Source: an uncultured Gammaproteobacteria bacterium (GTDB taxonomy: Bacteria > Patescibacteriota > Microgenomatia > UBA8517). Taken from it: DNA of 64,000 nucleotides. Both the position numbers and the translations under genes were made by a program. The notes under the pieces were generated by a model. It saw only the letters and a list, made by a program, of their open reading frames with translations. It had not been told where the DNA came from and did not search any database. The stretch is from NCBI GenBank assembly GCA_964617045.1, contig CAZTVZ010000001.1, positions 136,763 to 200,762 of the forward strand, given 5' to 3'. The number at the start of each line of letters is the position of its first letter. Position 1 is the first letter of the stretch. Shown in pieces: positions 2,591-29,718 of this stretch.

Positions 2591-2591
2591 A

Positions 2592-3458: not shown

Positions 3459-5059
3459 GGATTAAATTGATAATCGAATATTTTTCTGGCAATAGGTCCC
3501 GCAACTTTTGAACCTTCTCCTCCACCTTCCACCAAAACTGTCATCACCATTTCCGGTTTTTCAGCAGGAGCAAAAACCGTAAACCATGCGTGAGTTTTTC
3601 CGTCGGTGTTTGTTTCTGCCGTTCCAGTTTTACAAGCAACCTGAGGAAGAAAATCAAAAAACGTATAACCAGTTCCTCCGGTTGTACATGTTTTAACCAT
3701 TCCTGATATTACCGTGTCTATGTGTTTGCTGTTTATGTTTAATTTTTGACAATTTCCGCTTCCGAATATTTTCGGGCTGCAATATTCACCCCCCGAAGCA
3801 ATTGTTGTTGTAATTGTGTTCACGGCTACGGGAGATAGTCCCAAATACCCCTGTCCGATTGAAAGGTGATATGTGTTTCCCAAGTACCATGATTCTCCAA
3901 TTGTTTTTTTCTTCCAGTCGGGAGTTGGAACCAATCCTGCAATTTCACCCGGGATATCAATTCCGGTATTTTTATCCAATTTAAATTTCTCTGCCCAATC
4001 ATCAATCTTTTTTATCCCCATAAGTTCTCCTATTTTATAAAAGAAAGTGTCCGTAGACCTGGCCAAAGCTTTTTCTACATTGATTTCCCCTTCGGTACTT
4101 CCATATTGCGTGTAATACCAATTGGTATACGAATATTCGTTTACGTTAATATATCCGACATCGTTATATAACCAATCCTTATCAATTACCCCTTCTGATA
4201 ATGCGGCAAGGGCAATAAGTGGTTTAAAAACAGAGCCGGGATGATATTGACCACCGATTGTTCGATTAAATAACGGAAGATTTTCATCGGTTAAATACTT
4301 ACCGATTTCTTTATCTTTGTTCTTCCCTACAAATATATTTGGGTCAAAAGAAGGAGAGCTGGCAAGAGCCAGCACTTGACCTTTCAGGTCGGTAATTACA
4401 ACTGCCGCTTTTTCTCCACCAAGTGAGTCGAAAGCCCTAACCTGCAATCCGTATGAAATATTTGTTTTAATATCCTTTCCCGGGACAGGCTCTCTACGTC
4501 CAATTGTTCGGATTTTTTCACCAAATGTATCAACCTCAACCAGTTCCTCTCCGTCAATTCCTCTTAAATCGCATTCGTATTGGCTTTCAAGTCCGGTCCT
4601 TCCGATCGAATCTCCAGATCTGTAAATTCCTTTTTCTGGACATTTAGGATTAACTTTCCCGACTTCGTTCTCGTTAACTTCACCAATATATCCTCCAGTA
4701 TGGGCAAACTTTTCTCCCAAAACATAAAATCTTGAGTACTCTTTTACTATTTCGCTTTCGGAGGCATCTTTGATCTCGTCGGTTTTTTTAAATCCTTCTT
4801 TTGGATCTATTACAATTCTTTTTTTAGTTTCGATATTGTCAATTAGAATTTCTCCGCCTCTTGCCAACACTTTTCCACGAGCAGCTTTAATGGGAATTCT
4901 TCTAATCCTGTTTCCTTCTGCTGCCGCTTTATAATAATCACCTTTGATAATTTGAAGTTCCAATAATCTTCCCGCCAAAAGAAGGAAGGCGAGAATTAGT
5001 ATCCCTCTCACAAACCATACTAACCAGCTTTGTGTTCTGGTGGAGGCAAGTGTTTCCAT
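3455..5059 (-). CDS. mrdA: Penicillin-binding protein 2 family transpeptidase
   Basis: N-terminal membrane anchor. SxxK motif (GSVFKP) and KTGTAE motif. Located just downstream of mreB. Confidence 0.85.
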   Translation of the reverse strand: METLASTRTQSWLVWFVRGILILAFLLLAGRLLELQIIKGDYYKAAAEGNRIRRIPIKAARGKVLARGGEILIDNIETKKRIVIDPKEGFKKTDEIKDASESEIVKEYSRFYVLGEKFAHTGGYIGEVNENEVGKVNPKCPEKGIYRSGDSIGRTGLESQYECDLRGIDGEELVEVDTFGEKIRTIGRREPVPGKDIKTNISYGLQVRAFDSLGGEKAAVVITDLKGQVLALASSPSFDPNIFVGKNKDKEIGKYLTDENLPLFNRTIGGQYHPGSVFKPLIALAALSEGVIDKDWLYNDVGYINVNEYSYTNWYYTQYGSTEGEINVEKALARSTDTFFYKIGELMGIKKIDDWAEKFKLDKNTGIDIPGEIAGLVPTPDWKKKTIGESWYLGNTYHLSIGQGYLGLSPVAVNTITTTIASGGEYCSPKIFGSGNCQKLNINSKHIDTVISGMVKTCTTGGTGYTFFDFLPQVACKTGTAETNTDGKTHAWFTVFAPAEKPEMVMTVLVEGGGEGSKVAGPIARKIFDYQFNP

Positions 5060-5060
5060 G

Positions 5061-6128
5061 TTATAAACCTTTGGTTACTCTTATTTTCGCAAGAAGTTGA
5101 GGATCTTCCAATACCCTCCCGCAACCTCTGGCAACACAAGTTAAAGGATCATCGGCAACCCATACAGGCATTTTTGTTGCATCTGATACTACTTTGTCGA
5201 TTCCCGGTATCATTGCTCCCCCTCCAGCAAGAGCAATACCTTTTTCCATTATGTCGGATATTAGCTCCGGAGGGGTTTCTTCCAACGTCTCCGCTATCGC
5301 CGTTATTATTTCTTGAATCATCGGAGCAAGCGCTTCCCTAATTTCACTGGATGCAAGTTTAACCGATTTGGGTAAACCAGATTCCAAATCCCTTCCCCTG
5401 ATAACAGCAAATTTATCCTTTCCCTCAAGACATGATCCAATATTAATTTTAACGTCTTCTGCGGTGGGCTGTCCCAATAATAATGAGTACTTCAATCTAA
5501 CGTAATTAATGATTGCATCATCCATCTCGTCTCCGGCAACTCTAATTGATCTGCCCAGGACAATACCCCCCAGAGATATAACGGCAATTTCCGACGTACC
5601 ACCACCAATGTCAACAATGAATAACCCTCCGGGGTCTTCGACGGGAAGTCCGGCCCCAATTGCTGCTGCCATAGGTTCTTCAATTAAATGTGCTTCTCTT
5701 GCTCCGGCGGCAATGGCTGCATCAGCAACCGCCCTTCTTTCTACCTCGGTAACACCGGAAGGAATACCAATAACGACCCTTGGTCTCGGAATTTTGGGAA
5801 TATTGCTACCCGTCTCGTGAACTTTTCTTATATAGTGAGTAAGCATAGCAGCTGTTGCATCAAAATCGGCAATAACCCCGTCTTTCAATGGTCTTATTGT
5901 CTCGATTGTACTCGGAGCCCTACCCATCATTTTTTTTGCAGAAGATCCGATTGCGAGAACTTCTTTGGATTTTTTATGCCTTGCGACAGCGGATGGTTCC
6001 CTTATTACTATTCCTTTTCCACGGACATGTACAAGCGTGTTTGCAGTACCAAGATCGATACCCACATCGTGAGAAAATAATCCGAGGAATTTATCTATTA
6101 AAAATAGTTTCATTTGATATCTCCGCAA
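5061..6128 (-). CDS. mreB: Rod shape-determining actin homologue MreB
   Basis: GIDLGTANTLV phosphate-1 motif. EEPMAAAIGAGLPV and VDIGGGTSEIAV motifs. Confidence 0.9.
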   Translation of the reverse strand: MRRYQMKLFLIDKFLGLFSHDVGIDLGTANTLVHVRGKGIVIREPSAVARHKKSKEVLAIGSSAKKMMGRAPSTIETIRPLKDGVIADFDATAAMLTHYIRKVHETGSNIPKIPRPRVVIGIPSGVTEVERRAVADAAIAAGAREAHLIEEPMAAAIGAGLPVEDPGGLFIVDIGGGTSEIAVISLGGIVLGRSIRVAGDEMDDAIINYVRLKYSLLLGQPTAEDVKINIGSCLEGKDKFAVIRGRDLESGLPKSVKLASSEIREALAPMIQEIITAIAETLEETPPELISDIMEKGIALAGGGAMIPGIDKVVSDATKMPVWVADDPLTCVARGCGRVLEDPQLLAKIRVTKGL

Positions 6129-13120: not shown

Positions 13121-13294
13121 ATGGCAAAAAAAGGAGCTCGAGAAATAGTCGCTTTGATTTGTTCCGTTTGTAAAAGTCAAAATTACATTACAGACAGGAA
13201 CAAGGTTAATATGGAAGGAAAACTGCAAGTAAACAAATACTGCAAAAAATGCAGAAAATCCACTTCCCACAAAGAAACGTCCAAGCTTAAGTAA
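13121..13294 (+). CDS. rpmG: 50S ribosomal protein L33 (zinc-ribbon type), 57 aa. Not in the ORF track because it is under 60 aa.
   Basis: Manual translation: MAKKGAREIVALICSVCKSQNYITDRNKVNMEGKLQVNKYCKKCRKSTSHKETSKLK, with CxxC...CxxC. The tRNA-Thr-rpmG-tRNA-Trp-secE-nusG neighbourhood is a widely conserved arrangement. Confidence 0.8.
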   Translation: MAKKGAREIVALICSVCKSQNYITDRNKVNMEGKLQVNKYCKKCRKSTSHKETSKLK

Positions 13295-13338
13295 TTTCCC
13301 CTTTGAGCTTAAATCCGCTATAATAAACCCTAGTATTT

Positions 13339-13409
13339 AGGGGCGTCGTTCAACGGCAGGACTACGGTCTCCAAAACCGTCAATAGGAGTTCGATTCTCT
13401 TCGCCCCTG
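13339..13409 (+). tRNA. tRNA-Trp (anticodon CCA), compact 71 nt
   Basis: Acceptor aggggcg/cgcccct. Anticodon stem acggt/accgt, loop ctccaaa. T-loop ttcgatt. Its 3' end is overlapped by the recombinase stop codon at 13380. Confidence 0.7.
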
Positions 13410-15014
13410 CAGAGTGAGATTTTGAGAGTATAAATGCATCAATTGAGCCATATAATCGGTCTTTTCTTCGGGTTCGAACCTAGAGATAATTTTATCCGTC
13501 TCAACTTTAGCAGTTTTAGCAGCCAAAAACGGTTTTGGTACGGAAATACGGACTATTTTGTTGAATAACTCAAAGTTCGAACCGATTGTCGCCAGTATCT
13601 CTCTTTTCTTTTGTAAGCTATCGGTGTGTCCAAAATGATACATCGCATAACATGCAAAATCGAAGGTTTTAGTGGATAGTTCTAGCCACTGATTTACTCT
13701 CTCACCTACATTCTTCTTTTGATCTTCAAGGCTTTTCTTCTCTGCTTTTAAGTCTTTCATTTGTCTTTCAAATTCCTCGTCTGAAAGTACTGAACCGTCT
13801 GAATTCATTGGCGAGATTTTAAGCTTAACTAAATTGTTTATCTTCTCGATACAATCACCATAAGCAGAATCAACGCTTTTGTTTACTACTGTCTGATCTT
13901 TGGCCTCTTTATCGTGTAATTCATTCAGATACTTAATGGCCCAATCTTTGAATGACTCTGGAATCTCAATCTGGGATAGCAAATAGTCTGCTTGTCTCTC
14001 AAATTCACCCACCTCAATTGACTTTTGAGTACAATGCACATTTAATCTTTTCGTACAATGATAATAGATGTATCTTGAACCATATCTATTTATTTTCTCT
14101 TCAGCAGTAACCATTCCCCCACATTCTCCACAACGAACCATACCTGTAAAAGCAAACTCTCTGGTCTTAGGTCTTTGCTTCCCTTTCCTTCCTAAAAGAG
14201 CTTGGACCTTGTCGTATTCATCACGAGTTATCATCTTTTGATGTTTACCAACATACCATTTACCACTATATTCATATTCCCCGTAATAAAATGGATTTGT
14301 AAATATCTTGTATAAAGTGTTTTTGCCTATCTCATTTCCACCAAGTCTTTTATGTTTTGTAGTTCTATAACCCCATTCTTTATTCATTATGTCCATGATT
14401 TTTAAGACGGAATAATTACCAGTCAACATTAAGTCCCATGCTTTCCTGATAAGAGGAAACTTCACAGGATCAACACCTATTGTTCTTCTACCTCTCTCTT
14501 CAGTCTTGTCATTGTAATAACCTTCTGGAACACAACCAGGCCTCCAACCATTGTTTAGTTTCGTTTGTAAGCCTCTTTTAACATTCTTGGAAAGATCCCT
14601 CAAAAACTGATTAGCCTGCCCAAATTCGATATTTAGAAGAAGTACATTATCTTGTGATTGGTATAGTCTCTGAGGCGTCACAATCACTTTTAAGAGCTCT
14701 TTCTGAAGCAACCAGCTTAATGTACCAGAGTCGACTGGGTTTCTTGATCCACGGCTCAAATCCCAAATAATTAAGCCTTGAATAGCCCCTTCTTGAACAC
14801 GTTCAACTTCTTGATTAAAGACTGGTCTTCCTGGCTGTTTTGCAGACATTGATTCTTCTGCTATTTTTTCCACTTTGAGATGATTATCCATCGCTAACTT
14901 AACCAAGACCTCTTTTTGAGACTCAAGTGAAGCCACTTGATGATCATTATCATCACTACTACGTCTAAGGTAGATATCGTATTTTAATTGTAATAATTCT
15001 TCTGGTATGTACAT
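13380..15014 (-). CDS. Large serine recombinase (integrase of the putative inserted element)
   Basis: N-terminal resolvase catalytic domain (YLRRSSDDNDHQVASLESQ, with the serine nucleophile). Recombinase domain and a zinc ribbon (RCGECGG). C-terminal coiled coil. 544 aa. Confidence 0.85.
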   Translation of the reverse strand: MYIPEELLQLKYDIYLRRSSDDNDHQVASLESQKEVLVKLAMDNHLKVEKIAEESMSAKQPGRPVFNQEVERVQEGAIQGLIIWDLSRGSRNPVDSGTLSWLLQKELLKVIVTPQRLYQSQDNVLLLNIEFGQANQFLRDLSKNVKRGLQTKLNNGWRPGCVPEGYYNDKTEERGRRTIGVDPVKFPLIRKAWDLMLTGNYSVLKIMDIMNKEWGYRTTKHKRLGGNEIGKNTLYKIFTNPFYYGEYEYSGKWYVGKHQKMITRDEYDKVQALLGRKGKQRPKTREFAFTGMVRCGECGGMVTAEEKINRYGSRYIYYHCTKRLNVHCTQKSIEVGEFERQADYLLSQIEIPESFKDWAIKYLNELHDKEAKDQTVVNKSVDSAYGDCIEKINNLVKLKISPMNSDGSVLSDEEFERQMKDLKAEKKSLEDQKKNVGERVNQWLELSTKTFDFACYAMYHFGHTDSLQKKREILATIGSNFELFNKIVRISVPKPFLAAKTAKVETDKIISRFEPEEKTDYMAQLMHLYSQNLTLQGRRESNSY

Positions 15015-15131: not shown

Positions 15132-16061
15132 CTAAGTCAAGCCTACATATTCCAAACATCTATAAAATATTTCGTTGTCCCAATTCCCAAAATAATGGTT
15201 TAGGCGAAGGTTGTTTTTATCACGCTCAATACTTGTGAGCCATCTATTAATAACTTCTCTCATCACTCTATAGATATACTCCAAAGACCAGCCTTGATCC
15301 CTTAAAATTTGCACCTGCATAATAAAACCCAGGTAACATCTGTTAAGTTGTTCTTGCTTATACAAAATATGTTCCTCACCAAGTAAGGCTTCATATTTAA
15401 GCAAGTAATAAAGAAGGGATTTTCTTGCTAATCTTATTTCGTTTTTCTTGATATTATGTTTTGTTAACAAATCCTTATCTAGTAAGAAAGAAACACTAGC
15501 TTTGTTTATCATGCTACGGAATACCACTTCGTTTCGGGTTTTCGATAACGGTACGGGATTCAGATTTTCAGAGTTTTCCTTATAAGTACTACTTTTCTGG
15601 TCGTCCAGATAATTATTAGATTTAATATCACTATTTAATATATTATGTGACTGATCCTTCATGACCCCCATGAATGGATTTTCATTACTTTTTAAGTTTG
15701 CTTTTAAACCTTGATTTATGATATTTCCGATAACAGGCGAAATCTTTCTTACAGTCCCATAGCGAGATTTTCCTTCTTTGATTTCAGACTTCTTATACCT
15801 TGTAACATTAATGTATATTAGTTTTTTACTTTTGAGCTTTCTTAAAATGTATTGAACCCCACGAACACTTTTTACTCCAGCAACTTGGGTTAAGGTTTCG
15901 TTTTTTATAAAGCAATACCCATCTTTTTTAGATAGTCCAACAATTACTGCCAAAACATCTCTTTCTGATGCTTTGAGACCGACAACAGCATTTACAATAT
16001 TTGGAATAAATATAAATGGCTCCTCATTGATCGATTCTGATTCTGTCTTTTCACTTTTCAT
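15132..16061 (-). CDS. Hypothetical protein with an N-terminal winged-helix DNA-binding region (replication-initiator-like)
   Basis: LKASERDVLAVIVGLSKKDGYCFIKNETLTQVAGVKSVRGVQYILRKLKSKKLI looks like a wHTH. No other motif recognised. Confidence 0.35.
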   Translation of the reverse strand: MKSEKTESESINEEPFIFIPNIVNAVVGLKASERDVLAVIVGLSKKDGYCFIKNETLTQVAGVKSVRGVQYILRKLKSKKLIYINVTRYKKSEIKEGKSRYGTVRKISPVIGNIINQGLKANLKSNENPFMGVMKDQSHNILNSDIKSNNYLDDQKSSTYKENSENLNPVPLSKTRNEVVFRSMINKASVSFLLDKDLLTKHNIKKNEIRLARKSLLYYLLKYEALLGEEHILYKQEQLNRCYLGFIMQVQILRDQGWSLEYIYRVMREVINRWLTSIERDKNNLRLNHYFGNWDNEIFYRCLEYVGLT

Positions 16062-17621: not shown

Positions 17622-17840
17622 CTAATATGGAATCAAATCTTTTACCTTAACTTTCAATACTCTTGCTACCTTCTGAAGAGTCTTTAAGCTCATTCTTCTA
17701 TTACCTGTCTCAACTAAACCTATATGGGTTGTACTAACCCCAATGTCTTCAGCCAGTTGCTCTTGGGTTAATTCTGCCTGCCTTCTAAATCTTTTTATTC
17801 TTTTACCTATTCCAGAATCTTTTTTAGTTACCTTATCCAT
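17622..17840 (-). CDS. XRE-family helix-turn-helix transcriptional regulator (Cro/CI-like)
   Basis: LTQEQLAEDIGVSTTHIGLVETGNRRMSLKTLQKVARVL is a canonical HTH_3 pattern. 72 aa. It sits at a divergent junction, as phage repressors do. Confidence 0.8.
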   Translation of the reverse strand: MDKVTKKDSGIGKRIKRFRRQAELTQEQLAEDIGVSTTHIGLVETGNRRMSLKTLQKVARVLKVKVKDLIPY

Positions 17841-18947: not shown

Positions 18948-19769
18948 GTGCTAATATTATTATTAACTATGGATAAAACTACTCTAGAATCTAATGAAGA
19001 TAACAATAGAATCACCTTTTCACTAAAAGATATTGTTGTTGGTCAAGAAATTAACCCTAACAATATGACTCTCCCCTTACTAAATGAGTTTTTGCAACAA
19101 GTTACAACGTTTTTAAAAGGGGGGAAATATATAGACTTAGCCAAAGTTAAAAGTAGCATCAAGCATGGTTCCCTGGCAATTGAAGTAAACAACAACGACG
19201 GCCTATTGGATGAAGCCTTTAATGATTATCAAATTTTGTTAAAACATGGGTCGCTAAATGATATTGATTCCAATCGTGCAAGAATCGTTGAGTTATGGCA
19301 GTCGAATAGTAAAAATAATGAAAACAGGTCTTACGATTTGTATGTCGGTGATGATTCCACGAACAATCCTCATTTCATAATATCCAGGAAAACCAACTTT
19401 ATTATGATAAACAACAACTGGGTAGATGTTGATCTCTACCTTTACGGTAAGATATTTGATCTAGGGGGTAAAAACAAACCGAATGTTCATATCGAATTAG
19501 ATAATGGTAATACAATAAAAATTCAAACTAATACAAGCCTTTTATCAACCGATGAGGAAAACAGACTTTATAAAAAACAACTAGTAAGAATAAGGGCTAA
19601 ACGTAATATCGATACAAGACAATTGAAAGAAGAAAAACTTATGTCTTTTGTCTATTATAATCCTCAATTTGACGAAAAAAGCTTCGAAGAAATCTCAGAA
19701 AAAGCAACATTGGCTTGGAAATCGGTAAAAAATCCGTCTACTTGGGTTGATGAAATAAGAGGTAATTAA
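18948..19769 (+). CDS. Hypothetical protein, likely starting at MDKTT (18969)
   Basis: ORF only. N-rich and AT-rich codon usage. Immediately upstream of the PIN-like gene. Confidence 0.4.
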   Translation: MLILLLTMDKTTLESNEDNNRITFSLKDIVVGQEINPNNMTLPLLNEFLQQVTTFLKGGKYIDLAKVKSSIKHGSLAIEVNNNDGLLDEAFNDYQILLKHGSLNDIDSNRARIVELWQSNSKNNENRSYDLYVGDDSTNNPHFIISRKTNFIMINNNWVDVDLYLYGKIFDLGGKNKPNVHIELDNGNTIKIQTNTSLLSTDEENRLYKKQLVRIRAKRNIDTRQLKEEKLMSFVYYNPQFDEKSFEEISEKATLAWKSVKNPSTWVDEIRGN

Positions 19770-19777
19770 TACTAAAC

Positions 19778-20275
19778 ATGGATAAAGATAACAAGAAAAT
19801 GACTGTCTTAGTAGATACAAGTTTTCTAATAACTTTGTATGACAAAACGAGACCTAATAATCCTACTGCGTTTAAGTATTTAAATTATTTTTTAGATAAT
19901 TTAATAGACATGTATTTATCAACAATTGTTATTTCAGAATATCAACAAATGCAACCTATTGTCGATATTATAAATTCAGGTAATTACATACCCATATCTT
20001 ATAACTACGAGGACGCTATCAAAACGGCCGAAATTGCCTACAATATTTCAGGCGAAAAACGTGGATCACGGGCAGAATTCAAAGACGATCTGAAACTTAT
20101 GGGTCAGGCAGAATTTAACAATATTACATTCATTATCACAGATGATGAAACAACCTTAGCCAAATACTGTGAAAGATTATCTGGTGCCAAGATGTTTAAA
20201 CCAAAAATTATAATTATGAGTAAGGGATTTGATTCTAGTATTTTCAATGATGGCCAAGCCTCACTAATTGAATAA
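19778..20275 (+). CDS. PIN-domain-like putative nuclease
   Basis: VLVDTSFLI start, with conserved acidic positions (D in LVDTS, E in VISEYQ, DD in FIITDDET) spaced as in PIN domains. Confidence 0.4.
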   Translation: MDKDNKKMTVLVDTSFLITLYDKTRPNNPTAFKYLNYFLDNLIDMYLSTIVISEYQQMQPIVDIINSGNYIPISYNYEDAIKTAEIAYNISGEKRGSRAEFKDDLKLMGQAEFNNITFIITDDETTLAKYCERLSGAKMFKPKIIIMSKGFDSSIFNDGQASLIE

Positions 20276-20287
20276 AAGCACTTTAAG

Positions 20288-20911
20288 TTAATATGGTGGC
20301 ATTATTTGGAAGTTTATATTTTTACAACGCTTAATAAAATATAGTCGATAGTTTTTTCTATCTTCTCTCAATCTTTTTTTATATTCTTCACAAGCTTGTT
20401 TAAAATCTTCAATTAGTCGTGCATTTATAATAAGTATCTTGTAAAGATTGCCACTTTTAAGAAATTTTATTCCGCAGGATTCTCTTTCAAGAGCAATTTT
20501 GTAATCTGATTCATTTCCAGAACCAATTACTGAAAAAGTTAATTTTTTGCCATTTTTTATCTTATATGTCTTTATTAGATATTCATGAGTTAAACCTGAA
20601 CGAATAATGTTATAGATACCATTACCAGTCGCTCTTTTTATCTTTGCAATTTCTTTCTGATAACCATGATTAAATAGCTGGTTAATAACAAAATTGAATC
20701 TTTGAGTGGCAGAGCCACGAACATCTTTGTATCGATAAAAACTGCCTAGTATTTCAATATAGTTAAAAATACCCAATGCTACCAAAAAGTTCGCTTGTGC
20801 ATTAATACTAGACCTCTTTAGATCTCCATACATCCAGCCCTGAACTGTACTAAACCTAGGAAAATACCTTTGATAATCAACGTGGTTTTCCTGGAAGGTT
20901 TCCAAATTCAT
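20288..20911 (-). CDS. Hypothetical protein (207 aa)
   Basis: ORF only. Confidence 0.4.
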   Translation of the reverse strand: MNLETFQENHVDYQRYFPRFSTVQGWMYGDLKRSSINAQANFLVALGIFNYIEILGSFYRYKDVRGSATQRFNFVINQLFNHGYQKEIAKIKRATGNGIYNIIRSGLTHEYLIKTYKIKNGKKLTFSVIGSGNESDYKIALERESCGIKFLKSGNLYKILIINARLIEDFKQACEEYKKRLREDRKNYRLYFIKRCKNINFQIMPPY

Positions 20912-20988
20912 GTTTCAACAACAATATATTCTAGAAAGCTACAAAAGTAAATCTGGCTAGAGACAACTAGTGCTTTATCCCTCAGTCT

Positions 20989-21081
20989 GTTCCATTGTGG
21001 ATGTTAAGCATTTTTAAACACCCCTCCCCACCCACTAGGACGTGCAATGATTACACAAATTGAGGTTAATTATTGAAGCAC
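20989..21081. repeat. Repeat A copy 1 (93 nt). 71 nt are identical to 24203-24273 and a 9-mer matches 24181-24189.
   Basis: Direct comparison: tttttaaacacccctccccacccactaggacgtgcaatgattacacaaattgaggttaattattgaagcac is present identically at both sites. Confidence 0.85.
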
Positions 21082-21112
21082 AGATTACAAGACTGTTACG
21101 GTTTTTAATAAA

Positions 21113-21511
21113 CTAATTTAGTAACTTGTCGGCAAGGTCCCTGATTACTTCTCCTTTTTTTGTTATCTTTACTATCATCTCATCTGTACTTTTCTTACTT
21201 AATTTTTTACCTTTTTCTTTTCTCGTAACTAATTCCCATAATTTCTTATATTCTTGAATTTCATTTGAAAGAATTATACTGTGTTTCTTAAATCTAGATA
21301 TCAAATAATCCAACCTATCAAAGTCCTTGTCATATAAAGTTCGGTATTTCATAGATTTCTCAGCTCGCTTGGTAATATCGTGAGTTTTAATATTTAACTC
21401 CATTATTTCTTTATATTTAATCTCGTTTAATTTTTGCCTTCTAAAAAATGCCAACGGAAGGATCGCAAGAACAATAGAATTTATAATTGTGAGAGCTTGA
21501 AAAATGTCCAT
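21113..21511 (-). CDS. Small membrane-anchored coiled-coil protein carried on a ~509-bp insertion between repeats A and B
   Basis: N-terminal TM segment (IINSIVLAILPLAFF) followed by a K/E-rich helical region. The flanking 9-mers ttgaagcac (21073-21081) and ttgaagtac (21582-21590) resemble a target-site duplication. Confidence 0.45.
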   Translation of the reverse strand: MDIFQALTIINSIVLAILPLAFFRRQKLNEIKYKEIMELNIKTHDITKRAEKSMKYRTLYDKDFDRLDYLISRFKKHSIILSNEIQEYKKLWELVTRKEKGKKLSKKSTDEMIVKITKKGEVIRDLADKLLN

Positions 21512-21590
21512 TCACAGATATTATACTTCAAATCACTCAAAATGATGGATTGTCGGAATCTAAAACTCATACATTTAACTTTTGAAGTAC

Positions 21591-21643
21591 TGGAATATGG
21601 CAAGACTCTTGAAGCTGTCTGTAATAAGTTTTAACATCACTTA
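21591..21643. repeat. Repeat B copy 1 (53 nt, about 81% identical to 24274-24326)
   Basis: tggaatatggcaagactcttgaagctgtctgtaataagttttaacatcactta aligns with tgggatataacaaggctcttgaagattgaggtaataagttctaacatcactta. Confidence 0.75.
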
Positions 21644-23488
21644 GATATCCCATCGGGCTATCTCTTCGGCCAGTCTTTTAAACTCACTGATAGCATTACG
21701 ACTCATGAAAGCATTGAGTTCAGAAATACTACTTGGGTAATAATTTAATTGGAGCTTGTCGATAGATAACTTTTCCCCTTCCTTCAATGAACTATTTATG
21801 TAATCATCAATCGATCCAATTCCCAATAACCACACATTCTGCTTTCTAAAAATAGTTCTAATTTTACCAATCTGAAAGTCTTTAATAACTTTTAACAAAC
21901 CAGATTTCCGTTCATAGACATACTTTTCAATCAATTTCTTATAACGCATTTGGTATAGTTTTTTGTCATCCTCGGTTAACGTACCTTGATTAAAAATTTT
22001 ATTAACTAATTTGAAAAAAGTGGTCTTAACTTCACTGTTAAGTGAAAATGTCCTTATTCCACTTTCTTTATCGTCAAGTCTCACCATTTTTCTCTTAAGG
22101 GTATTTACAGATCTAACAAATTCTTTACCGAAAAAATCAAAATCTGTTTCTTGTAAAAAGAAGTCTAAATCTACTACAAAAAAATAGTCTGTTCCTAGGT
22201 CTTTAGATAAGTCATACAGACTATGCATATATGCTTTTCCATAGCCCGCAACTATCTCTATATTTCTTTGATCCAAACTCATTTTGTTTAAGTGCTTCGA
22301 TAGAACTCCCAACGTCCTTTCAAAAAATATTTTATCTGTCGTTGATTCGACAGCTATTATTTTTCTACAAAAAAATATTTCGGGAAATGTAAGATATTTT
22401 TGTAATAATCTTTTATTCTGTAGTTTGACATGTCTCGTAAAAGTGTCTGATGTTTTTAGCAATTTTATACAATCGACTTTCGTCCACCTGATAAAAAATG
22501 TGGAGTGTGTTGCAATCAAGACTTGAACACCACGATGTGATAACTTCTTAATTTTAGAAATTACAAATGGCAATTGGGAATAATTTAAGTGCAACTCAGG
22601 TTCGTCAATTATCACAATCGAGGGCCCGACTTCTTCTATTGTTTCAAAAAAAACATTAAGGTTGTTTAGTTGTTGTTCACCAGAGCTTGCCTTTTGAATA
22701 TCTTTCCCTTTCCCATCCAAAATCATACGTGACATTTCTGGATTTCCATCATATACATATCTATAGTCGTCACTTTTTGACAGGTTGTTAATTATTGTTG
22801 TAGAATCTTCGACAACCTTGTTAAAATGCCTACTCATCGCTTTTTTGTTTTCCAAGGTTTTGAATAATATGCTTTTAAAATCAGCGTAGTTGTAAGCTAA
22901 TGACTTAATTCTTAATTTTTGTAATATTTTTCTCGCATCTAAATCTCGTGATTGATAAACATAATATATATCGTTATCAACCCTAACCAAAACTCGTTCG
23001 TTATGACTACTTCCAGACCCGATAAGTACTAATAAAAATTTTACCTTTGAATTCTTCATGTCATGCAGTTTAAGAAGACCCTCCCTTACTATTGGTTTGT
23101 CTCTGGTGTCGTCAACCAAAATCTTCTTAATGTCGACCATGCAATTTTCGTTATTTTTTGTCAAAGCGCACACCATAGTATCAGACCATACATCTTTTAA
23201 AAAACTGCTATTCAACTCAACTTCTGATGTCTCGAAAACTATATAGGGAACTTTACTGTGGTCTTCGGAGTAATATGAGCTGAACAAATTAGTCACAGAG
23301 AAAAAGTTCTTATTTCCAAGAAAATTGCCATCCAAAAAATAGGCCATTATTTGCAATAAAGTACTTTTCCCTACAGCATTCGGCCCAACGAAGATATTTA
23401 GATTTGAAGTAAGATCTACTTCGAAATCTTTAAAGCACCTTATACCATCAACAAAGATTCTTGATATGTAAGTGGAATTCAAATTCAT
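21641..23488 (-). CDS. OLD-family nuclease: ABC-type ATPase with a C-terminal TOPRIM domain (a fused PARIS AriA/AriB-like architecture is also possible)
   Basis: Walker A GPNAVGKST. Signature-like SSGEQQ. Walker B IVIIDEPELHL. H-loop LIATHS. TOPRIM glutamate in IIAVESTTDKIFFERTL and the DxD in FFVVDLDF. 615 aa. Confidence 0.75.
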   Translation of the reverse strand: MNLNSTYISRIFVDGIRCFKDFEVDLTSNLNIFVGPNAVGKSTLLQIMAYFLDGNFLGNKNFFSVTNLFSSYYSEDHSKVPYIVFETSEVELNSSFLKDVWSDTMVCALTKNNENCMVDIKKILVDDTRDKPIVREGLLKLHDMKNSKVKFLLVLIGSGSSHNERVLVRVDNDIYYVYQSRDLDARKILQKLRIKSLAYNYADFKSILFKTLENKKAMSRHFNKVVEDSTTIINNLSKSDDYRYVYDGNPEMSRMILDGKGKDIQKASSGEQQLNNLNVFFETIEEVGPSIVIIDEPELHLNYSQLPFVISKIKKLSHRGVQVLIATHSTFFIRWTKVDCIKLLKTSDTFTRHVKLQNKRLLQKYLTFPEIFFCRKIIAVESTTDKIFFERTLGVLSKHLNKMSLDQRNIEIVAGYGKAYMHSLYDLSKDLGTDYFFVVDLDFFLQETDFDFFGKEFVRSVNTLKRKMVRLDDKESGIRTFSLNSEVKTTFFKLVNKIFNQGTLTEDDKKLYQMRYKKLIEKYVYERKSGLLKVIKDFQIGKIRTIFRKQNVWLLGIGSIDDYINSSLKEGEKLSIDKLQLNYYPSSISELNAFMSRNAISEFKRLAEEIARWDI

Positions 23489-23537
23489 AAAACAGGCTTA
23501 TTTTAGTTCACCCCAGATTAAGAAGCAATCAAGGAGC

Positions 23538-24107
23538 CTATTTTGATTTTACTATGATAAAGGAAAGTCCTCCAACATATTTGTCTTTAATTCTCTGATA
23601 CTCAGTATTGCCACCCATTACTTCTCCGTCATCTTCAAATCTGGGATTTTCCACCAATGCCATGAAATGTCCACGATTCTCTTCATTCTTTCTTCTTAAC
23701 ATCGTAACAGCAGTGGAAATTCCAGGCACAGGTCTAACCCACCCATCTTCTGAATCAATAATTGGAACCTGATCTTCTACTGGTATTCCCCCTCTAATGT
23801 GTTCTATTGATTGGTCAGTATGGTTAATAATGTGATCTACTTTAAGTCCTAATTCTGGTTCAAATCTTTTGACTTCGCTTATAAACTCACCCACCTTAAC
23901 TCCCTTACCAAGCTTTAAACCTTGTTTGATTTTCGTCTCAATAGATTTTGGTAAAAGTCTATCGGGATAGAGATAATTGAAACAACTGATCAGAGAATAA
24001 TAGAAACACCCATCACCCAAATCATGAGTTTCTTTTACAAAATTACTTAATCTATCTCTTTGCATTACTCCAATAGCTCTTTCAAGCAATGGTCTATCCA
24101 TGGACAT
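23538..24107 (-). CDS. Hypothetical 189-aa protein, first gene of the OLD operon. Possibly a papain-fold/OTU-like cysteine peptidase.
   Basis: LGDGCFYYSLISC resembles the OTU Cys-box and RGHFMALVE the His-box. Weak motif-level evidence only. Confidence 0.35.
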   Translation of the reverse strand: MSMDRPLLERAIGVMQRDRLSNFVKETHDLGDGCFYYSLISCFNYLYPDRLLPKSIETKIKQGLKLGKGVKVGEFISEVKRFEPELGLKVDHIINHTDQSIEHIRGGIPVEDQVPIIDSEDGWVRPVPGISTAVTMLRRKNEENRGHFMALVENPRFEDDGEVMGGNTEYQRIKDKYVGGLSFIIVKSK

Positions 24108-24180
24108 ATTTTAACTCGCACCATTATGAGAGGCAATCTGCTCTACAACTAGGCAAGTCTAGTACTTTACTCCGCGTTTG

Positions 24181-24273
24181 GTTCCATTGGGAGTCCCAGG
24201 CGTTTTTAAACACCCCTCCCCACCCACTAGGACGTGCAATGATTACACAAATTGAGGTTAATTATTGAAGCAC
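24181..24273. repeat. Repeat A copy 2
   Basis: See repeat A copy 1. Here A is directly contiguous with B. Confidence 0.85.
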
Positions 24274-24326
24274 TGGGATATAACAAGGCTCTTGAAGATT
24301 GAGGTAATAAGTTCTAACATCACTTA
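24274..24326. repeat. Repeat B copy 2
   Basis: See repeat B copy 1. Confidence 0.75.
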
Positions 24327-24353
24327 CGACTTTCTGCAAAAAAGCTTTAGGGT

Positions 24354-24824
24354 GTGTATTATAGAATAATGGAACCAACAAGAATTCCTACTATCGAAAA
24401 AGTTAAATTGTTCCTTGAGGAATATGGATGGCATTTTAGGGAAATTGTTTCTGAAAATAAAACCTCTTTAATTTCACCTTATACTTTGGAGGGAGAAAAT
24501 AAAGGAGTTTTGATTAGTTTTAAAATCGAAGGCGAATTTGTTATGGTATCGACTGTAGACTTTCTTAAAAATATCCCAGATAGCTTTACAATAAACCTTC
24601 TTTCATTAAACGATAAGTTGAAACTAATAAAAATATTTGTCACCAGCCAAAATGGAGATAATACCGTAAATGCAGATGTTGGTTTTGAACTTTGGGATAA
24701 TTCTTGGAATAAAGAAGGATTTTTCTCATTTATGGACATGCTTTGTTTAGGAATTGAAAAAACAATCGAAATGGTTTCAACTGAAAACATTCCCCATCAA
24801 ACAAATTTTGTTACATTCTCCTAA
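24354..24824 (+). CDS. Hypothetical protein, possibly YbjN-like (putative sensory-transduction regulator fold)
   Basis: The size (~156 aa) and an alternating beta-rich pattern are reminiscent of YbjN/T3SS-chaperone-like proteins. Weak. Confidence 0.3.
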   Translation: MYYRIMEPTRIPTIEKVKLFLEEYGWHFREIVSENKTSLISPYTLEGENKGVLISFKIEGEFVMVSTVDFLKNIPDSFTINLLSLNDKLKLIKIFVTSQNGDNTVNADVGFELWDNSWNKEGFFSFMDMLCLGIEKTIEMVSTENIPHQTNFVTFS

Positions 24825-25794: not shown

Positions 25795-26799
25795 TTACCT
25801 GTTTCTTTTCATTCGTCTCTCTTCGAAATACTCGTTTCGCATTAATTGATTGTGGATCTTCAACAAAGCGTGATACTCTATCTGCCTTACTCTTTCTCTG
25901 GTCAAGTTAAACATCTTGGCCGTTTCTTCCAATGTGTGTTTTTCGTGATCCAAATATCCAACTCTGTACAAAAATATTGTTGCATTTCTGGGATTTTTGT
26001 AAAAAATATCGTTAACCATTTTGACAATGTAATCGGCATATTCTTTTTCTTCCATGATAACTTCCTGGTTTTTCTTGCTATCCGGAATAAAGTCGGCAAA
26101 CACACTTTCTTTGTCCCCGACCGGTTCATCAAGATCGAGTACCATATTCTTGGCGTATTTAAGTTTTTTAACGTATTTGAGAGGCTTTCCCAACTCTTGC
26201 GCAATTTCTTCGTTTGTCGGCTCCGTTCCGTTAATAAGTGTCTGTCTTACAGTCATCTTGTTCATTTTTATCAAATTATCATGAACATTGGCCGGATATC
26301 GGATTATTCTCGAGTAGTTGGCCATTGCTCTTCTTATACTTTGTTCTATCCACCATGTGGCGTGAGTGGTAAATCGATTGCCCAAGGAATAATCGTATTT
26401 TCTTGCCGCAATTACCATTCCATACATTCCTTCCTGAATTAAGTCTTCAAAGGGCAAACCTTTTCCTACATATTTTTTGGCAATATTAACCACCAAACGC
26501 TGGTGGGCATCCATAAGTTGACTCATTGCCTCTCTTGCATCTTCATTGAAATCTTCTTTTTTGGCACCAATGATATCCCCTTTTCTTTCAAACAACATTC
26601 CGTTTTTAATCCTTTTTCCCAACTCAATTTCCTCTTCAAGGGTAAGATATGTGCCGTTTTCGGGAGCGCGGGCTTCCGCAAGCATCAACTTGATAGGATC
26701 TGTGGGTACATTTTCATATCTGTCTTTACCGTTTTTTCTGGACGGTAAATCGAAATCGGCAGGGATTCTGTTTTCTGGGAGTCTTTCGGTCATATGCAA
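25795..26799 (-). CDS. RNA polymerase sigma-70 family factor (regions 1.2, 2, 3, 4). Possibly the primary sigma factor.
   Basis: Region 2.4: TTHATWWIEQSIRRAMANYSRIIRYP. Region 3: EEIAQELGKPLKYVKKL. Region 4.2 HTH: TLEETAKMFNLTRERVRQIEYHALLKI. Confidence 0.85.
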   Translation of the reverse strand: MHMTERLPENRIPADFDLPSRKNGKDRYENVPTDPIKLMLAEARAPENGTYLTLEEEIELGKRIKNGMLFERKGDIIGAKKEDFNEDAREAMSQLMDAHQRLVVNIAKKYVGKGLPFEDLIQEGMYGMVIAARKYDYSLGNRFTTHATWWIEQSIRRAMANYSRIIRYPANVHDNLIKMNKMTVRQTLINGTEPTNEEIAQELGKPLKYVKKLKYAKNMVLDLDEPVGDKESVFADFIPDSKKNQEVIMEEKEYADYIVKMVNDIFYKNPRNATIFLYRVGYLDHEKHTLEETAKMFNLTRERVRQIEYHALLKIHNQLMRNEYFEERRMKRNR

Positions 26800-27444: not shown

Positions 27445-28089
27445 GTGACCAAAAAAGGATCAGTGTTGGCGATAATTTTGATAATAGTTGCAATCTCGCT
27501 TGCGGGTGTAGGAGGATTTTTTGCAAAAGATGCGATTAAGCAAATTGCAGAGGCAGACAAAAAAACCGGAGGTATGGAAAACTTAAACGAAAAAGAGATT
27601 TTTTCCAGCTCAACCCCCACCCCTACTCCGATTAAAACCACAAAGACATATGTAAACGACAATCCAAAATTTTCAGTTGAAATTAAAAACGATTTAATCG
27701 AAAAGAAAAGCACCGACAGAAACGGATACACAAGTATCCTATTCGAAAGTCCAGATTACAAAATGGATGAACCGGAGAACGGCTACCCAACAGTAAAATC
27801 CGGATATACAGTTAGTGTCTACGCAGAAAGTGCAAATTCGAATCTTCAGGGAGAATTTGACAACAAACCAATTTATAAAGAGGCGGGTCAAAATATTAAA
27901 AATATAAAAGTCGATAACAGGGACGCTTTACAGTTTGATTTTGGTTACGAAGGAGTAATTTCAGTTACAACCATGGTTGTTAAAGACGAACTTCTTTACA
28001 CCATAGATATGAGATATTCATACGAAGAAGGAAAAGATAAATATTTTGGGGAATACACAAAAATAATTGAATCTTTTAAGTTCCTTTAA
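27445..28089 (+). CDS. Membrane-anchored or secreted hypothetical protein
   Basis: N-terminal TM/signal segment, TPTPTP linker, then a beta-rich domain. Confidence 0.4.
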   Translation: MTKKGSVLAIILIIVAISLAGVGGFFAKDAIKQIAEADKKTGGMENLNEKEIFSSSTPTPTPIKTTKTYVNDNPKFSVEIKNDLIEKKSTDRNGYTSILFESPDYKMDEPENGYPTVKSGYTVSVYAESANSNLQGEFDNKPIYKEAGQNIKNIKVDNRDALQFDFGYEGVISVTTMVVKDELLYTIDMRYSYEEGKDKYFGEYTKIIESFKFL

Positions 28090-28685
28090 CCTCGAATCAT
28101 ATCCAAATCTTCAGGCCAGGTTTCTTCTTTTTCGGTTAAGATAAACATTGTGTGATAATCCCTTTCGTATCTGGTTTCACCCGTGAGCGGATTTACTATT
28201 TCATTTTCATCCCACCATCTGTCTTCAAATTCTAAAATATGAAATATTCTGTCGGTTCCCGCAAACCTGGCATACGGATCTGCCAACATAATAATGTTGT
28301 TTACCGTATCTATGTATGTAACAACTGCATAGTGGCCGTTATCGTCGTCCGAATCTTCATAAAATACACCTTGCCATTCTATTCCCACCGGGTGTTTGTA
28401 TTGACGAACCGCTCGGACAAGATCGCTTAGACTTGAATTGTGTTTGTACCAAAACTGCATGTCAGGAAGAAGAATACTTACTGCATGAGCCATTTCCTTA
28501 ATAAACATTCCATGGGTTTGAAGTTTTTGCCGTATATCAACTGCATCAACAAATGCTTCCTGATCAATATCTCGACCGGCATTCGAAGCAAGCATTTCAA
28601 GAACTGCAGGACCACAATGTGCATTTGTAACCTGCGCAATTCTTCTTAACTCAGGAAAATATTGGCTACTGAAGAGTTTTGGCAT
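28086..28685 (-). CDS. Papain-fold C39-like cysteine peptidase domain protein
   Basis: QVTNAHCGPAVLEMLASNAG matches the C39-like Q...CG.A.L.M.L..G motif. A downstream His sits in DDNGHYAVVTY. Confidence 0.5.
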   Translation of the reverse strand: MPKLFSSQYFPELRRIAQVTNAHCGPAVLEMLASNAGRDIDQEAFVDAVDIRQKLQTHGMFIKEMAHAVSILLPDMQFWYKHNSSLSDLVRAVRQYKHPVGIEWQGVFYEDSDDDNGHYAVVTYIDTVNNIIMLADPYARFAGTDRIFHILEFEDRWWDENEIVNPLTGETRYERDYHTMFILTEKEETWPEDLDMIRG

Positions 28686-29718
28686 ATTTGCTTATCATAC
28701 ACGCGAGAACGTCAGTGAAAGATACTCCATGGAGAGCCATTACTTCTGTCATAGGCAGTCCCATATCCGGCCCGAATGCCGTATTCGGATTACTGTCGGT
28801 AAAATATGGAATACCGGTATTCTCGTCTACCCTTACGTCAAATTTGGCATAGTCTTTGTGATGCAAACCGTTAAAAGCTCGAATGGCGAGTGTTTGAATT
28901 TTTGTTGCCAAAGGTTCGGGTACAAACTTGTATTTATACGCATCTTCGTCATCATAACTTTCGATTGAAGTAAAGAAATGCTTTCCGTCTGGTTTGTTTT
29001 TGAATATCTTTTGTCCCATAAATACCTGTTTTTTGGTTCCATCGTCAAAAACCACAACGGTTACTTCTTCTCCGTCAATAAATTGCTCGACAATTACCGG
29101 AATTTTGTATGTTCCGACCATTTCGTCAACTTTTTTCTGAGCTTCTTTTACTGTTTCTTTTACAGCTTTGTTGTCAATTCCCACAGATCCTCCCGATTCG
29201 TTAAGTTTTACAATCAAAGGAACCCCTAACCCTTCGTCAATTGCAGTTCCGGCTCTTCTTACAAATTGGAAATTGGGTGTGGGAATGTCGTATGCGATAA
29301 GAAGTCTTTTGGTAATATTCCTGTTGTTTCCGATAATCATTCCTTCCATCCCTGCTCCGGTATATGGAATACTGGATAATTCAAGTGCTGCGGGCACAGA
29401 TGTTTGGAGTCTGTCTTTTCCCCTCAGTGTATCCACCAGATTGATTACTATGTCTGGTTTGTCCACAAGAAGGTTCGTGAGGAAGTATTGGTCTCCGGGA
29501 TAGGTTCGGACTTCGACTCCGAGCTTTCTTATTTCCTCGGCAACTTCTTTTGCCCTATCCTCAACTTCAACCTCAGCTATATAAGCATCTTCTGTGGGGA
29601 AAAAATCTCTTTCAACGTGAGAATACGCAACGGCAACCAGTTTAAGTTTCTTTAAAGCGTCCTTATCGATAGGAAGTTTAATTTTCGAAGGTTTTTTTAT
29701 TTTTTTATCTTCCGACAT
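28666..29718 (-). CDS. ATP-grasp protein of the D-alanine--D-alanine ligase family
   Basis: PLIVKLNESGGSVGI and FDVRVDENTGIPYFTDSNPNTAFG match Ddl-type ATP-grasp motifs. Overlaps the C39-like gene by 20 nt, consistent with an operon. Confidence 0.55.
   Translation of the reverse strand: MSEDKKIKKPSKIKLPIDKDALKKLKLVAVAYSHVERDFFPTEDAYIAEVEVEDRAKEVAEEIRKLGVEVRTYPGDQYFLTNLLVDKPDIVINLVDTLRGKDRLQTSVPAALELSSIPYTGAGMEGMIIGNNRNITKRLLIAYDIPTPNFQFVRRAGTAIDEGLGVPLIVKLNESGGSVGIDNKAVKETVKEAQKKVDEMVGTYKIPVIVEQFIDGEEVTVVVFDDGTKKQVFMGQKIFKNKPDGKHFFTSIESYDDEDAYKYKFVPEPLATKIQTLAIRAFNGLHHKDYAKFDVRVDENTGIPYFTDSNPNTAFGPDMGLPMTEVMALHGVSFTDVLACMISKYAKTLQ

Follow-up and report, generated by a model that had tools for sequence, protein, structure and literature searches.

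An OLD-family nuclease gene on a low-GC integrative element adjoins a gene for a rare, predicted papain-fold protein, probably without forming a two-gene system with it

Two adjoining genes in a 64,000-nt stretch of DNA from an uncultured bacterium (contig CAZTVZ010000001.1; the whole stretch analysed is hereafter called the window) raise the question of whether an OLD-family nuclease has gained a new kind of partner. One gene encodes a 615-aa OLD-family protein, and the other, lying upstream on the same strand and 49 nt away, encodes a 189-aa protein that a preliminary description had paired with it as a candidate two-gene defence system. If the pairing were true, a protease-coupled class would be added to the OLD nucleases, whose triggers remain poorly understood. 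We find it more probable (roughly 70%) that the two are independent neighbours, a stand-alone Class-1-type OLD gene carried as cargo and a papain-fold gene, joined by local rearrangement. The features on which this reading is built are collected in Table 1.

Table 1. Positions in the window of the two genes, their flanking repeats and the surrounding element genes.
Feature	Coordinates	Strand	Remarks
tRNA-Trp	13339-13410		overlapped by the 3' end of the serine recombinase gene
Large serine recombinase	13380..15014	-	Resolvase + Recombinase + Zn_ribbon_recom
309-aa HTH_36 / replication-initiator-like protein	15132..16061	-	
72-aa XRE-type HTH regulator	17622..17840	-	
207-aa ORF	20288..20911	-	preceded by R copy A; function unassigned after Pfam, PADLOC, NCBIfam and PHROGs
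Repeat R copy A (115 nt)	20967..21081		follows the 132-aa ORF and stops 55 nt short of the 207-aa start codon
132-aa ORF	21113..21511	-	hydrophobic N-terminus; downstream of OLD, inside the R-bounded 3.2-kb unit
Repeat L copy C (69 nt)	21575..21643		from the OLD stop codon, between OLD and the 132-aa ORF
615-aa OLD-family protein	21641..23488	-	N-terminal ABC-type ATPase, C-terminal TOPRIM, then helical tail
49-nt spacer between the 189-aa and OLD genes	23489..23537	-	
189-aa protein, rare uncharacterised family	23538..24107	-	predicted papain-like fold; candidate catalytic Cys34 and His147
Repeat R copy B (115 nt)	24159..24273		stops 51 nt short of the 189-aa start codon
Repeat L copy B (69 nt)	24258..24326		directly 5' of R copy B (gene orientation), with a 16-nt overlap

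The 615-aa protein matched three ATPase families in Pfam (AAA_15, 3.4e-17; AAA_21, 7.8e-16; AAA_23, 1.4e-13) as well as OLD-like_TOPRIM (PF20469, 1.2e-10; 42.2 bits against a cut-off of 23.2), the latter across the whole profile (1-67 of 67) at residues 372-442; AAA_15, AAA_21 and OLD-like_TOPRIM each exceeded their own cut-off. Its Walker A (G35-PNAV-G40-K41-S42, residues 35-42), signature (S268-S-G270-E271, residues 268-271), Walker B (D295-E296) and H-loop (H328), together with the TOPRIM residues E381 and D440-x-D442, were all invariant in an alignment of 6 sequences (A6). The OLD ATPase-TOPRIM architecture assigned to this ORF in the preliminary description is thereby borne out, with the sequence pointing to an ABC-type ATPase followed by a C-terminal TOPRIM. 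The best solved relative in a PDB profile search was the Class 1 OLD of Thermus scotoductus (6p74; 1.5e-22), aligned from Walker B through TOPRIM, and a single-sequence search matched 6p74 at the N-terminus only (2.9e-4). Close relatives numbered only two among 5.8 billion proteins, and an AF2 model built on the 6-sequence alignment was too poor for reading the fold (pLDDT 45). When the locus was checked with PADLOC, as had been proposed, the 615-aa protein matched models of GajA (2e-23, the top match), Old (1.4e-22), AriA (1e-18) and AriAB (8.5e-16), and the 189-aa protein matched none.

Examples of Class 1 OLD proteins are P2 Old, Thermus scotoductus OLD, Vibrio cholerae Vc OLD and E. coli YbjD. 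The OLD classes have been defined (PMC10568477), and defence by stand-alone Class 1 OLD proteins has been reported (PMC12392090). We found no helicase, RT or AriB-type gene near the OLD gene on searching its neighbours with Pfam, PADLOC, NCBIfam and PHROGs. Class 2 (Gabija) was rejected since a GajB-type helicase gene is absent: no helicase, and so no GajB-like gene, was present in the island ORFs scanned (13.4 to 29.7 kb), and the place directly downstream of OLD is taken not by a UvrD/PcrA/Rep-like gene but by the 132-aa ORF, which has no matches. Class 3 (retron) was likewise set aside, there being neither an RT domain in the neighbouring ORFs nor an Rfam match (E <= 1) within 20850-24400; the NCBIfam retron Eco8 effector model scored 34.6 bits against a cut-off of 250. 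Class 4 (PARIS) was rejected because there is no AriB gene and the AriAB model ranked below GajA and Old, and no TOPRIM-type Pfam family other than OLD-like_TOPRIM, AriB-type included, was reported in the protein. Like the single-gene Class 1, the 615-aa OLD has no dedicated helicase, RT or AriB partner. From its sequence we read it as a genuine OLD-type ATPase-nuclease of the stand-alone (Class-1-type), single-gene anti-phage kind.

The 189-aa protein carries the motifs GDGCFYYSL (from residue 31) and RGHFMALVE (from residue 145), which had been likened to the Cys- and His-boxes of papain-fold or OTU-type peptidases. It gave no match in Pfam, PADLOC, NCBIfam or PHROGs, in keeping with its description as an uncharacterised neighbour without helicase features. 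An AF2 model (pLDDT 84) predicts a papain-like, two-lobe fold in which C34 is the first residue of a helix (34-46) and H147 lies in a strand (146-150), so that a putative nucleophilic Cys would stand at a helix N-terminus and the His on a beta-strand. In 33 sequences that share 19-65% identity with the query, C34 never varied and the conservation of H147 was at least 90%. In the family alignment (A3), G165-G166 followed by Q or N was common, not invariant, and no Asn or Asp was conserved at a fixed distance past H147. Model and conservation together uphold the two boxes and the papain-like fold; the OTU part of the likeness found no profile match. Indeed, 0 of 33 members matched any Pfam peptidase family, on which ground both OTU and C39 were rejected, and an hhalign comparison with a C39-like protein of the same window also spoke against C39 (probability 0.2). 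A PDB sequence profile search returned noise only, Foldseek with the model found nothing significant in PDB or BFVD, and no relatives were found in viral contigs or BFVD.

We found the family to be rare (39 representatives among 1.84 billion proteins) and not covered by a Pfam model. Its members are about 180-240 aa long or shorter in 38 of the 39 representatives, and ATPase and nuclease domains are absent throughout; the one longer member, P0053 (487 aa), holds internal repeats of the family profile only. The 189-aa protein is probably a cytoplasmic protein with a papain-like fold and a Cys34/His147 catalytic pair, and this predicted fold and pair make it a probable, if putative, thiol peptidase, isopeptidase or amidase. 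The ~190-aa family, with its invariant Cys and near-invariant His, would lend itself to curation as a new family of putative thiol peptidases.

No terminator-like site was predicted on the minus strand between the 189-aa and OLD genes. The layout underlying the proposed operon (same strand, a 49-nt gap, no such site) therefore stands, and the operon itself is something we infer from it. The two genes may be co-transcribed; nothing suggests that they act jointly. Among 10 distinct loci searched by tblastn and with an OLD HMM, none had an OLD gene adjoining the 189-aa homologue, and the neighbours were instead adh_short, alpha/beta hydrolases, GrpB, DUF4145, UDG, 2'-5' RNA ligase and a Trans_reg_C regulator. 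The nearest OLD homologue (L013; 61% identity) is preceded by an APH/fructosamine-kinase-like gene, has neighbours on both sides that differ from those of the 615-aa OLD, and shares its 9.4-kb contig with no 189-aa relative; among close OLD relatives this is the one informative context, the other (L014) having just 51 nt upstream. By blastn, homology to L013 covers window positions 23528..21646 only, and homology to two 189-aa relatives (L004 and L016) covers 24121..23539 only. Since the OLD-proximal 40 nt of the spacer (23489-23528) are conserved with the leader of that closest OLD homologue, they belong to the OLD module. Adjacency is thus not conserved across genomes in the contexts examined. 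Because the two genes adjoin only in this genome, we find no support for a new two-gene defence system or a new OLD pairing; the search of other genomes that the preliminary description had called for found, in these contexts, a pair that is not co-conserved, an outcome which that description had itself named as refuting its proposal.

Some further observations concern these neighbourhoods. One locus (L019) has a distant OLD-family gene 7.4 kb from a 189-aa homologue, with PD-(D/E)XK and GmrSD neighbours, which could hint at a loose tie of the 189-aa family to defence regions. Logan assemblies from at least 4 samples contain the same OLD/189-aa arrangement, as identical sequence and not as independent conservation. 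Base composition was tried as a marker of an island boundary between the genes and did not discriminate (GC of 0.361 for the 189-aa gene, 0.324 for OLD and 0.304 for the next ORF). A syntenic link between the 189-aa gene and rpoD was also discarded, as it holds in one clade only (L001, L019, L020); the window's sigma-70 gene is just 36% identical in that comparison, too little to establish orthology.

The OLD gene lies in a region of low GC (0.30-0.34 over 15-25 kb, where the window as a whole has 0.37) with a large serine recombinase gene at tRNA-Trp, which confirms the AT-rich integrated element noted earlier. This recombinase likely serves as integrase for the low-GC element on which OLD is carried. 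The 309-aa protein matched phrog_270, a replication initiation protein (6e-07), and Pfam HTH_36 below the cut-off (7.7e-05; 22.9 bits, cut-off 25). The 72-aa XRE regulator is 64% identical to an HTH gene of L013 that is situated 1 kb from the OLD homologue there, indicating that OLD is tied to the element and not to the 189-aa gene. Judged from gene content and composition, OLD is cargo of a ~11-kb integrative element at tRNA-Trp that also holds the recombinase, replication-initiator-like and XRE genes.

The repeats reported around the pair are genuine, not chance matches, and resolve into two overlapping pairs, R and L, the L pair lying where the repeats had been placed before. The R copies are 86% identical over 115 nt and match perfectly across a 75-nt core, from which a 50-nt stretch occurred exactly 2 times versus 0 in 100 shuffles; L copies B and C are 81% identical over 69 nt. 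Contiguity across R copy A was confirmed in an independent sample (L024). The repeats do bracket the two genes as claimed, but the R pair takes in a third, the 132-aa ORF, for which Pfam, PADLOC, NCBIfam and PHROGs gave no homologue and which is absent downstream of OLD in L013 and L014.

Several identities for the repeats were considered and rejected. R is not a known RNA by Rfam, at either gathering or E-value thresholds, and the predicted RNA structures did not clearly surpass those of shuffled sequences (z of -0.2 and -2.3 for the 115-nt R copies; the leaders gave -0.3 and +1.3). A role of R in phage attachment was dropped since a 47-nt piece of its core had no exact match in viral contigs; as an operator of the XRE regulator, its imperfect palindrome (GTGTAA-TCA-TTGCAC) had no further copies in the element. 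L is not a 3' element that OLD genes share: L013 has none, and the similarity downstream of the L014 OLD is not robust, its score being reached by 11/2000 and 1082/2000 shuffles. Nor is L copy B a relic of the 3' end of an OLD gene, as no coding remnant lies upstream and the mismatches show no third-codon-position bias. A Logan unitig of 3181 nt (L012), equal to the R-bounded unit, was rejected as a circle; its ends run 30 nt into the R core, as de Bruijn graph branching at k=31 predicts.

How else might the two genes have come together? The 189-aa protein could be a separate accessory (a toxin, effector, or defence or anti-defence protease) that gathers in the variable or defence region of OLD, a reading we hold to be unlikely. 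It would fit a rare, patchy family in variable neighbourhoods, which include Fic/DOC genes (L002, L020), a holin-like gene (L020), DUF4145 (L011) and a defence cluster 4-7 kb from the family member in L019; homology confined to the 189-aa gene suggests single-gene mobility, and the syntenic L013 site appears, on a weak match, without the gene. Yet no PADLOC or PHROGs model matched the protein, viral contigs and BFVD held no relatives, and many of the neighbours encode routine metabolic enzymes or hydrolases (Ser_hydrolase, abhydrolase, adh_short, GrpB, OMP decarboxylase). Somewhat less probable again is that OLD serves the mobile element itself, in replication, maintenance or competition with other elements, and not the protection of the host from phage. 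The element does have its own recombinase and a replication-initiator-like gene. However, P2 Old is prophage cargo that excludes competing phage, so both roles overlap. An archaeal OLD-family protein, Cran1, has a non-defence role (PMC12796447), whereas in bacteria every characterised OLD class relates to defence (PMC10568477; PMC12392090).

A recently assembled two-gene system, effectively a new OLD class in which the papain-fold protein would be an infection sensor or would activate or license OLD, for example by proteolytic processing, seems to us quite improbable. The shared strand, the short gap free of a terminator-like site, the placing of both genes in a repeat-bounded unit of a low-GC mobile element, the recurrence in Logan samples and the OLD gene at 7.4 kb in L019 all lean towards it. 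Against these stand the 0 of 10 distinct family contexts with adjacency, a nearest OLD homologue without a 189-aa partner, homology breakpoints that coincide with the gene borders, the lack of domain fusions seen in the 189-aa family, and the resemblance of OLD to self-sufficient Class 1 enzymes; the Logan samples, moreover, share one sequence. More doubtful still is a newly assembled, lineage-restricted pair, effectively a fifth OLD context in which a thiol peptidase would gate or trigger the TOPRIM nuclease and the L/R modules would be recombination or regulatory sites for cassette swapping inside an element with a serine recombinase.

If the genes are independent neighbours, as we favour, OLD alone would most likely nick or degrade invading phage or plasmid DNA, as do P2 Old and Vc OLD, and by the same analogy its ATPase and TOPRIM sites would both be required. 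Elsewhere the 189-aa gene is found as a single-gene module in unrelated neighbourhoods, and its adjacency to OLD would have arisen by a local cassette-like rearrangement, marked by the duplicated L/R intergenic modules before the 189-aa/OLD, 132-aa and 207-aa genes.

Set beside known systems, the 189-aa family differs from the papain-fold (clan CA-type) peptidases with which we compared it (staphopains, C39 bacteriocin-processing domains, AvrPphB, UfSP, and bacterial and viral deubiquitinases) in a distinctive conserved N-terminal helix, QRDRLSxFxKE. The ATPase part of OLD is like that of PARIS AriA (PADLOC, 1e-18; PDB 8ux9, 1.3e-18); in contrast to AriB and fused AriAB, its TOPRIM is of the OLD-like_TOPRIM type and a separate AriB gene is absent. 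Gabija GajA (Class 2) has the same ATPase-TOPRIM architecture and supplies the top PADLOC matches, but no GajA structure was among the best 60 of 80 PDB profile matches, and the neighbours here are the predicted papain-fold protein and the 132-aa ORF in place of GajB. With the Class 1 nucleases the 615-aa OLD shares the lack of a helicase, RT or AriB partner and, with P2 Old, its carriage as mobile-element cargo, although it is very divergent and longer than TsOLD (528 aa). It would be one more single-gene OLD nuclease travelling as mobile-element cargo in uncultured environmental bacteria, a useful addition and not a surprising one.

The 615-aa protein had been described from its sequence as an OLD-family ATPase-TOPRIM nuclease, and domain searches bore this out. 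We found Pfam matches to AAA_15 (3.4e-17), AAA_21 (7.8e-16) and AAA_23, together with the full model of PF20469 (OLD-like_TOPRIM) at aa 372-442 (1.2e-10; 42.2 bits vs a cut-off of 23.2). A PADLOC scan of the locus agreed, with GajA (2e-23) and Old (1.4e-22) as the top defence-library matches. The ATPase motifs (Walker A, G35..G40-K41-S42; signature, S268/G270/E271; Walker B, D295-E296; H-loop, H328) and the TOPRIM motifs (E381 and D440-x-D442) were all invariant in an alignment with the five retrievable relatives of OLD; close relatives numbered only two (61% and 47% identity).

The OLD and 189-aa ORFs lie on one strand with 49 nt between them, and the preliminary description had joined them in a candidate two-gene defence system, a new OLD pairing. 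We recovered 10 distinct contexts of 189-aa homologues (23-85% identity; in 9/10 the downstream sequence extends for about 0.9 kb or more), and in none did an OLD gene adjoin the homologue (tblastn with the OLD protein and an HMM of the OLD alignment). The 85% homologue (locus L004) is followed, likewise at 49 nt, by adh_short. Neighbours elsewhere were DUF4145 and a 193-aa protein (L011), Abhydrolase_11 (L006-L010), Ser_hydrolase and GrpB (L005/L015), Trans_reg_C and a glycosyltransferase (L002), small unknown proteins (L001), alpha/beta hydrolases and a 2'-5' RNA ligase (L019), a holin-like protein (L020), and a second family paralogue and UDG (L022). Conversely, the OLD homologue of locus L013 lies between an APH/fructosamine-kinase-like gene upstream and an SNase gene downstream, and its 9.4-kb contig carries no 189-aa relative anywhere; the OLD relative in L014 has only 51 nt of upstream sequence and is uninformative on a partner.

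Nucleotide homology of the two genes is modular: similarity to L004/L016 spans window positions 24121 to 23539 (the 189-aa gene plus 14 nt) and similarity to L013 spans 23528 to 21646 (OLD plus a 40-nt leader), placing a junction about 10 nt wide within the spacer. L013 has both the adh_short gene found after the 189-aa gene in L004 and a sequence weakly similar to the upstream region of L004, with no 189-aa gene between them; this pattern suggests that loci have or lack the 189-aa gene as one cassette. The window arrangement does recur in Logan contigs of several samples, which is not independent conservation because these contigs carry the same sequence (99.95-100% identity). A protease-OLD system assembled recently at this locus would fit the close same-strand spacing; set against the unlinked homologues and the junction within the spacer, we regard it as highly improbable. 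Co-conservation thus does not support a two-gene system, as judged from sequence comparison.

The 189-aa family is rare (11 proteins among 5.8 billion; 39 members when 1.84 billion cluster representatives were searched with a profile) and is matched by no Pfam, PADLOC, NCBIfam or PHROGs model. Its members are about 180-240 aa or shorter, except for a 487-aa protein with internal repeats of the family profile, and none of the 39 representatives carries a fused ATPase or nuclease domain. The Cys-box and His-box reported earlier are present, at aa 31 and aa 145. A confident AlphaFold2 model built from the family alignment (pLDDT 84.4, pTM 0.83) has a helical N-terminal lobe, with helix 34-46 beginning at Cys34, and a beta C-terminal lobe, with His147 in strand 146-150. 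Across 33 members (19-65% identity to the query), Cys34 is the sole invariant residue and His147 is kept in at least 90%. Because of this fold and the conservation of Cys34/His147, the protein is probably a papain-like Cys/His enzyme. The papain-like part of the proposed papain-fold/OTU-type peptidase is thereby retained and the OTU part dropped, as no OTU-specific feature was found; no third catalytic residue was identified, and Foldseek of the model returned nothing significant in PDB or BFVD.

Several neighbourhoods of the family merit description. Serine-hydrolase or alpha/beta-hydrolase genes, often with an SNase-type nuclease (farther upstream in L006 and L007), lie just upstream of family genes in L005/L015, L006-L007 and L019; the arrangement recurs in several lineages, and no other neighbourhood of the family showed even loose conservation. 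An SNase gene also adjoins the OLD homologue in L013. In L022:1718-2931, tandem paralogues (203 aa and 196 aa) precede the uracil-DNA glycosylase gene. Locus L019 (metagenome contig Ga0265292_1000015) carries a compact group of defence genes at 784-5757, which is 4-7 kb upstream of its family gene and consists, in order, of a distant OLD-family ATPase-TOPRIM gene (about 25% identity; AAA_15 1.6e-39, OLD-like_TOPRIM 1.2e-21; 7.4 kb upstream), a PD-(D/E)XK nuclease (252 aa) and a type IV restriction enzyme, GmrSD_N (798 aa). Between this group and the 189-aa homologue lie five metabolic or hydrolase genes. The arrangement is not an operon; at most, L019 points to a tendency of the family to occur close to variable regions. 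In related genomes (L001, L019, L020), a sigma-70 gene lies 5-9 kb from the homologue, preceded by dnaG in L001 and L020. In the window, a gene of the sigma-70 family (25795-26799) is found 1.7 kb upstream with matching relative orientation; at only 36% identity it is at most a candidate orthologue.

Coordinates of the integrative element, the two genes and their flanking repeats
Feature	Window position	Strand	Remarks
tRNA-Trp	13339-13410		overlapped by 3' end of serine recombinase ORF
Large serine recombinase	13380-15014	-	Resolvase, Recombinase, Zn_ribbon_recom; left edge of low-GC region
309-aa HTH_36/replication-initiator-like protein			after recombinase; phrog_270 6e-07; Pfam HTH_36 just under cut-off
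XRE regulator	17622-17840
R repeat (pair D1)	20967-21081; 24159-24273		115 nt, 86% identical, 75-nt identical core
132-aa ORF	21113-21511		third ORF inside R-bounded unit
L repeat (pair D2)	21575-21643; 24258-24326		69 nt, 81% identical
OLD (615 aa)	21641-23488	-
189-aa ORF	23538-24107	-

Both genes had been placed inside an AT-rich integrated element, a placement supported by the low GC at 15 to 25 kb (0.30-0.34 vs 0.37 for the whole window) and by the recombinase, replication-initiator-like and XRE genes (see table). The recombinase ORF overlaps 31 nt at the tRNA-Trp 3' end, which is what integration into or beside the tRNA gene would be expected to leave; the other end showed no partial copy of tRNA-Trp, and base composition leaves the right-hand boundary unfixed. 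The XRE protein shares 64% identity with the HTH gene situated 1 kb away from the L013 OLD homologue, the closest one, which ties OLD to this element type. By reading of the sequence, an L33-like (rpmG) ORF precedes tRNA-Trp (13122-13410 region), and a Logan unitig (L023) ends at 13280, the end of that ORF. Within the low-GC element, adjacent 273-aa and 165-aa proteins (18948-20275, +) show sub-cut-off matches to Pox_A22/RuvC-like (0.0027) and PIN (0.015; N-terminus VLVDTSFLI), respectively, and may form a small nuclease or toxin module. At 28086-29718 (-), a 350-aa ATP-grasp/D-Ala-D-Ala-ligase-like protein lies upstream of a 199-aa Peptidase_C39-like protein (2.7e-05), and the two overlap by 20 nt; they may form a pair for peptide ligation and processing.

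The bracketing repeats resolved into two overlapping direct-repeat pairs, with L essentially where the preliminary description had put it. Read along the genes, the succession is L then R, 189-aa ORF, OLD, L, 132-aa ORF, a degenerate L then R, 207-aa ORF. A 50-nt piece of the R core has exactly two copies in the window (0 in 100 shuffles). R ends 51 nt and 55 nt before the 189-aa and 207-aa start codons, a position suggestive of a 5' leader or regulatory module that has been duplicated. For the repeats we saw no Rfam match, significant fold, viral match or extra operator copies. The 75-nt core holds an imperfect palindrome, GTGTAA-TCA-TTGCAC (21042-21056 and 24234-24248), then a G-rich run (GGGTGGGGAGGGGTG), and both R copies can close with a GUGCUU/AAG(C/U)AC stem.

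The domain calls of the preliminary description thus stand without its two-gene system. We propose that a serine-recombinase integrative element carries the Class-1-type OLD nuclease as cargo. By analogy with its family the nuclease would act in defence, ATP binding or hydrolysis by the ABC domain controlling two-metal TOPRIM cleavage of invading DNA. The 189-aa protein would be an unrelated cytoplasmic papain-fold thiol hydrolase, and L and R would be duplicated intergenic modules at cassette junctions.

OLD classes are set by genetic context: single genes (Class 1), a downstream UvrD-like helicase, i.e. Gabija (Class 2), a retron RT with ncRNA (Class 3) and PARIS (Class 4) (PMC10568477). Scans of neighbouring ORFs (Pfam, PADLOC, NCBIfam, PHROGs) found beside the window OLD neither the helicase of Gabija, nor the RT of Class 3, nor an AriB-type gene as in PARIS, and no Rfam match lay around the locus. 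The AlphaFold2 model of OLD (pLDDT 45) was too poor to check for the Class 2 TOPRIM insert. Against solved structures, the family profile of OLD best matched the Class 1 Thermus scotoductus OLD (6p74; 1.5e-22), from Walker B to TOPRIM, whereas the remaining structures among the 60 matches listed (AriA, PtuA, Rad50, SMC) align on the ATPase part only. From sequence and context, we assign the window OLD as a predicted Class-1-type nuclease, alongside the Class 1 proteins that defend alone: Vc OLD (PMC12392090), E. coli YbjD (PMC13261556) and P2 Old.
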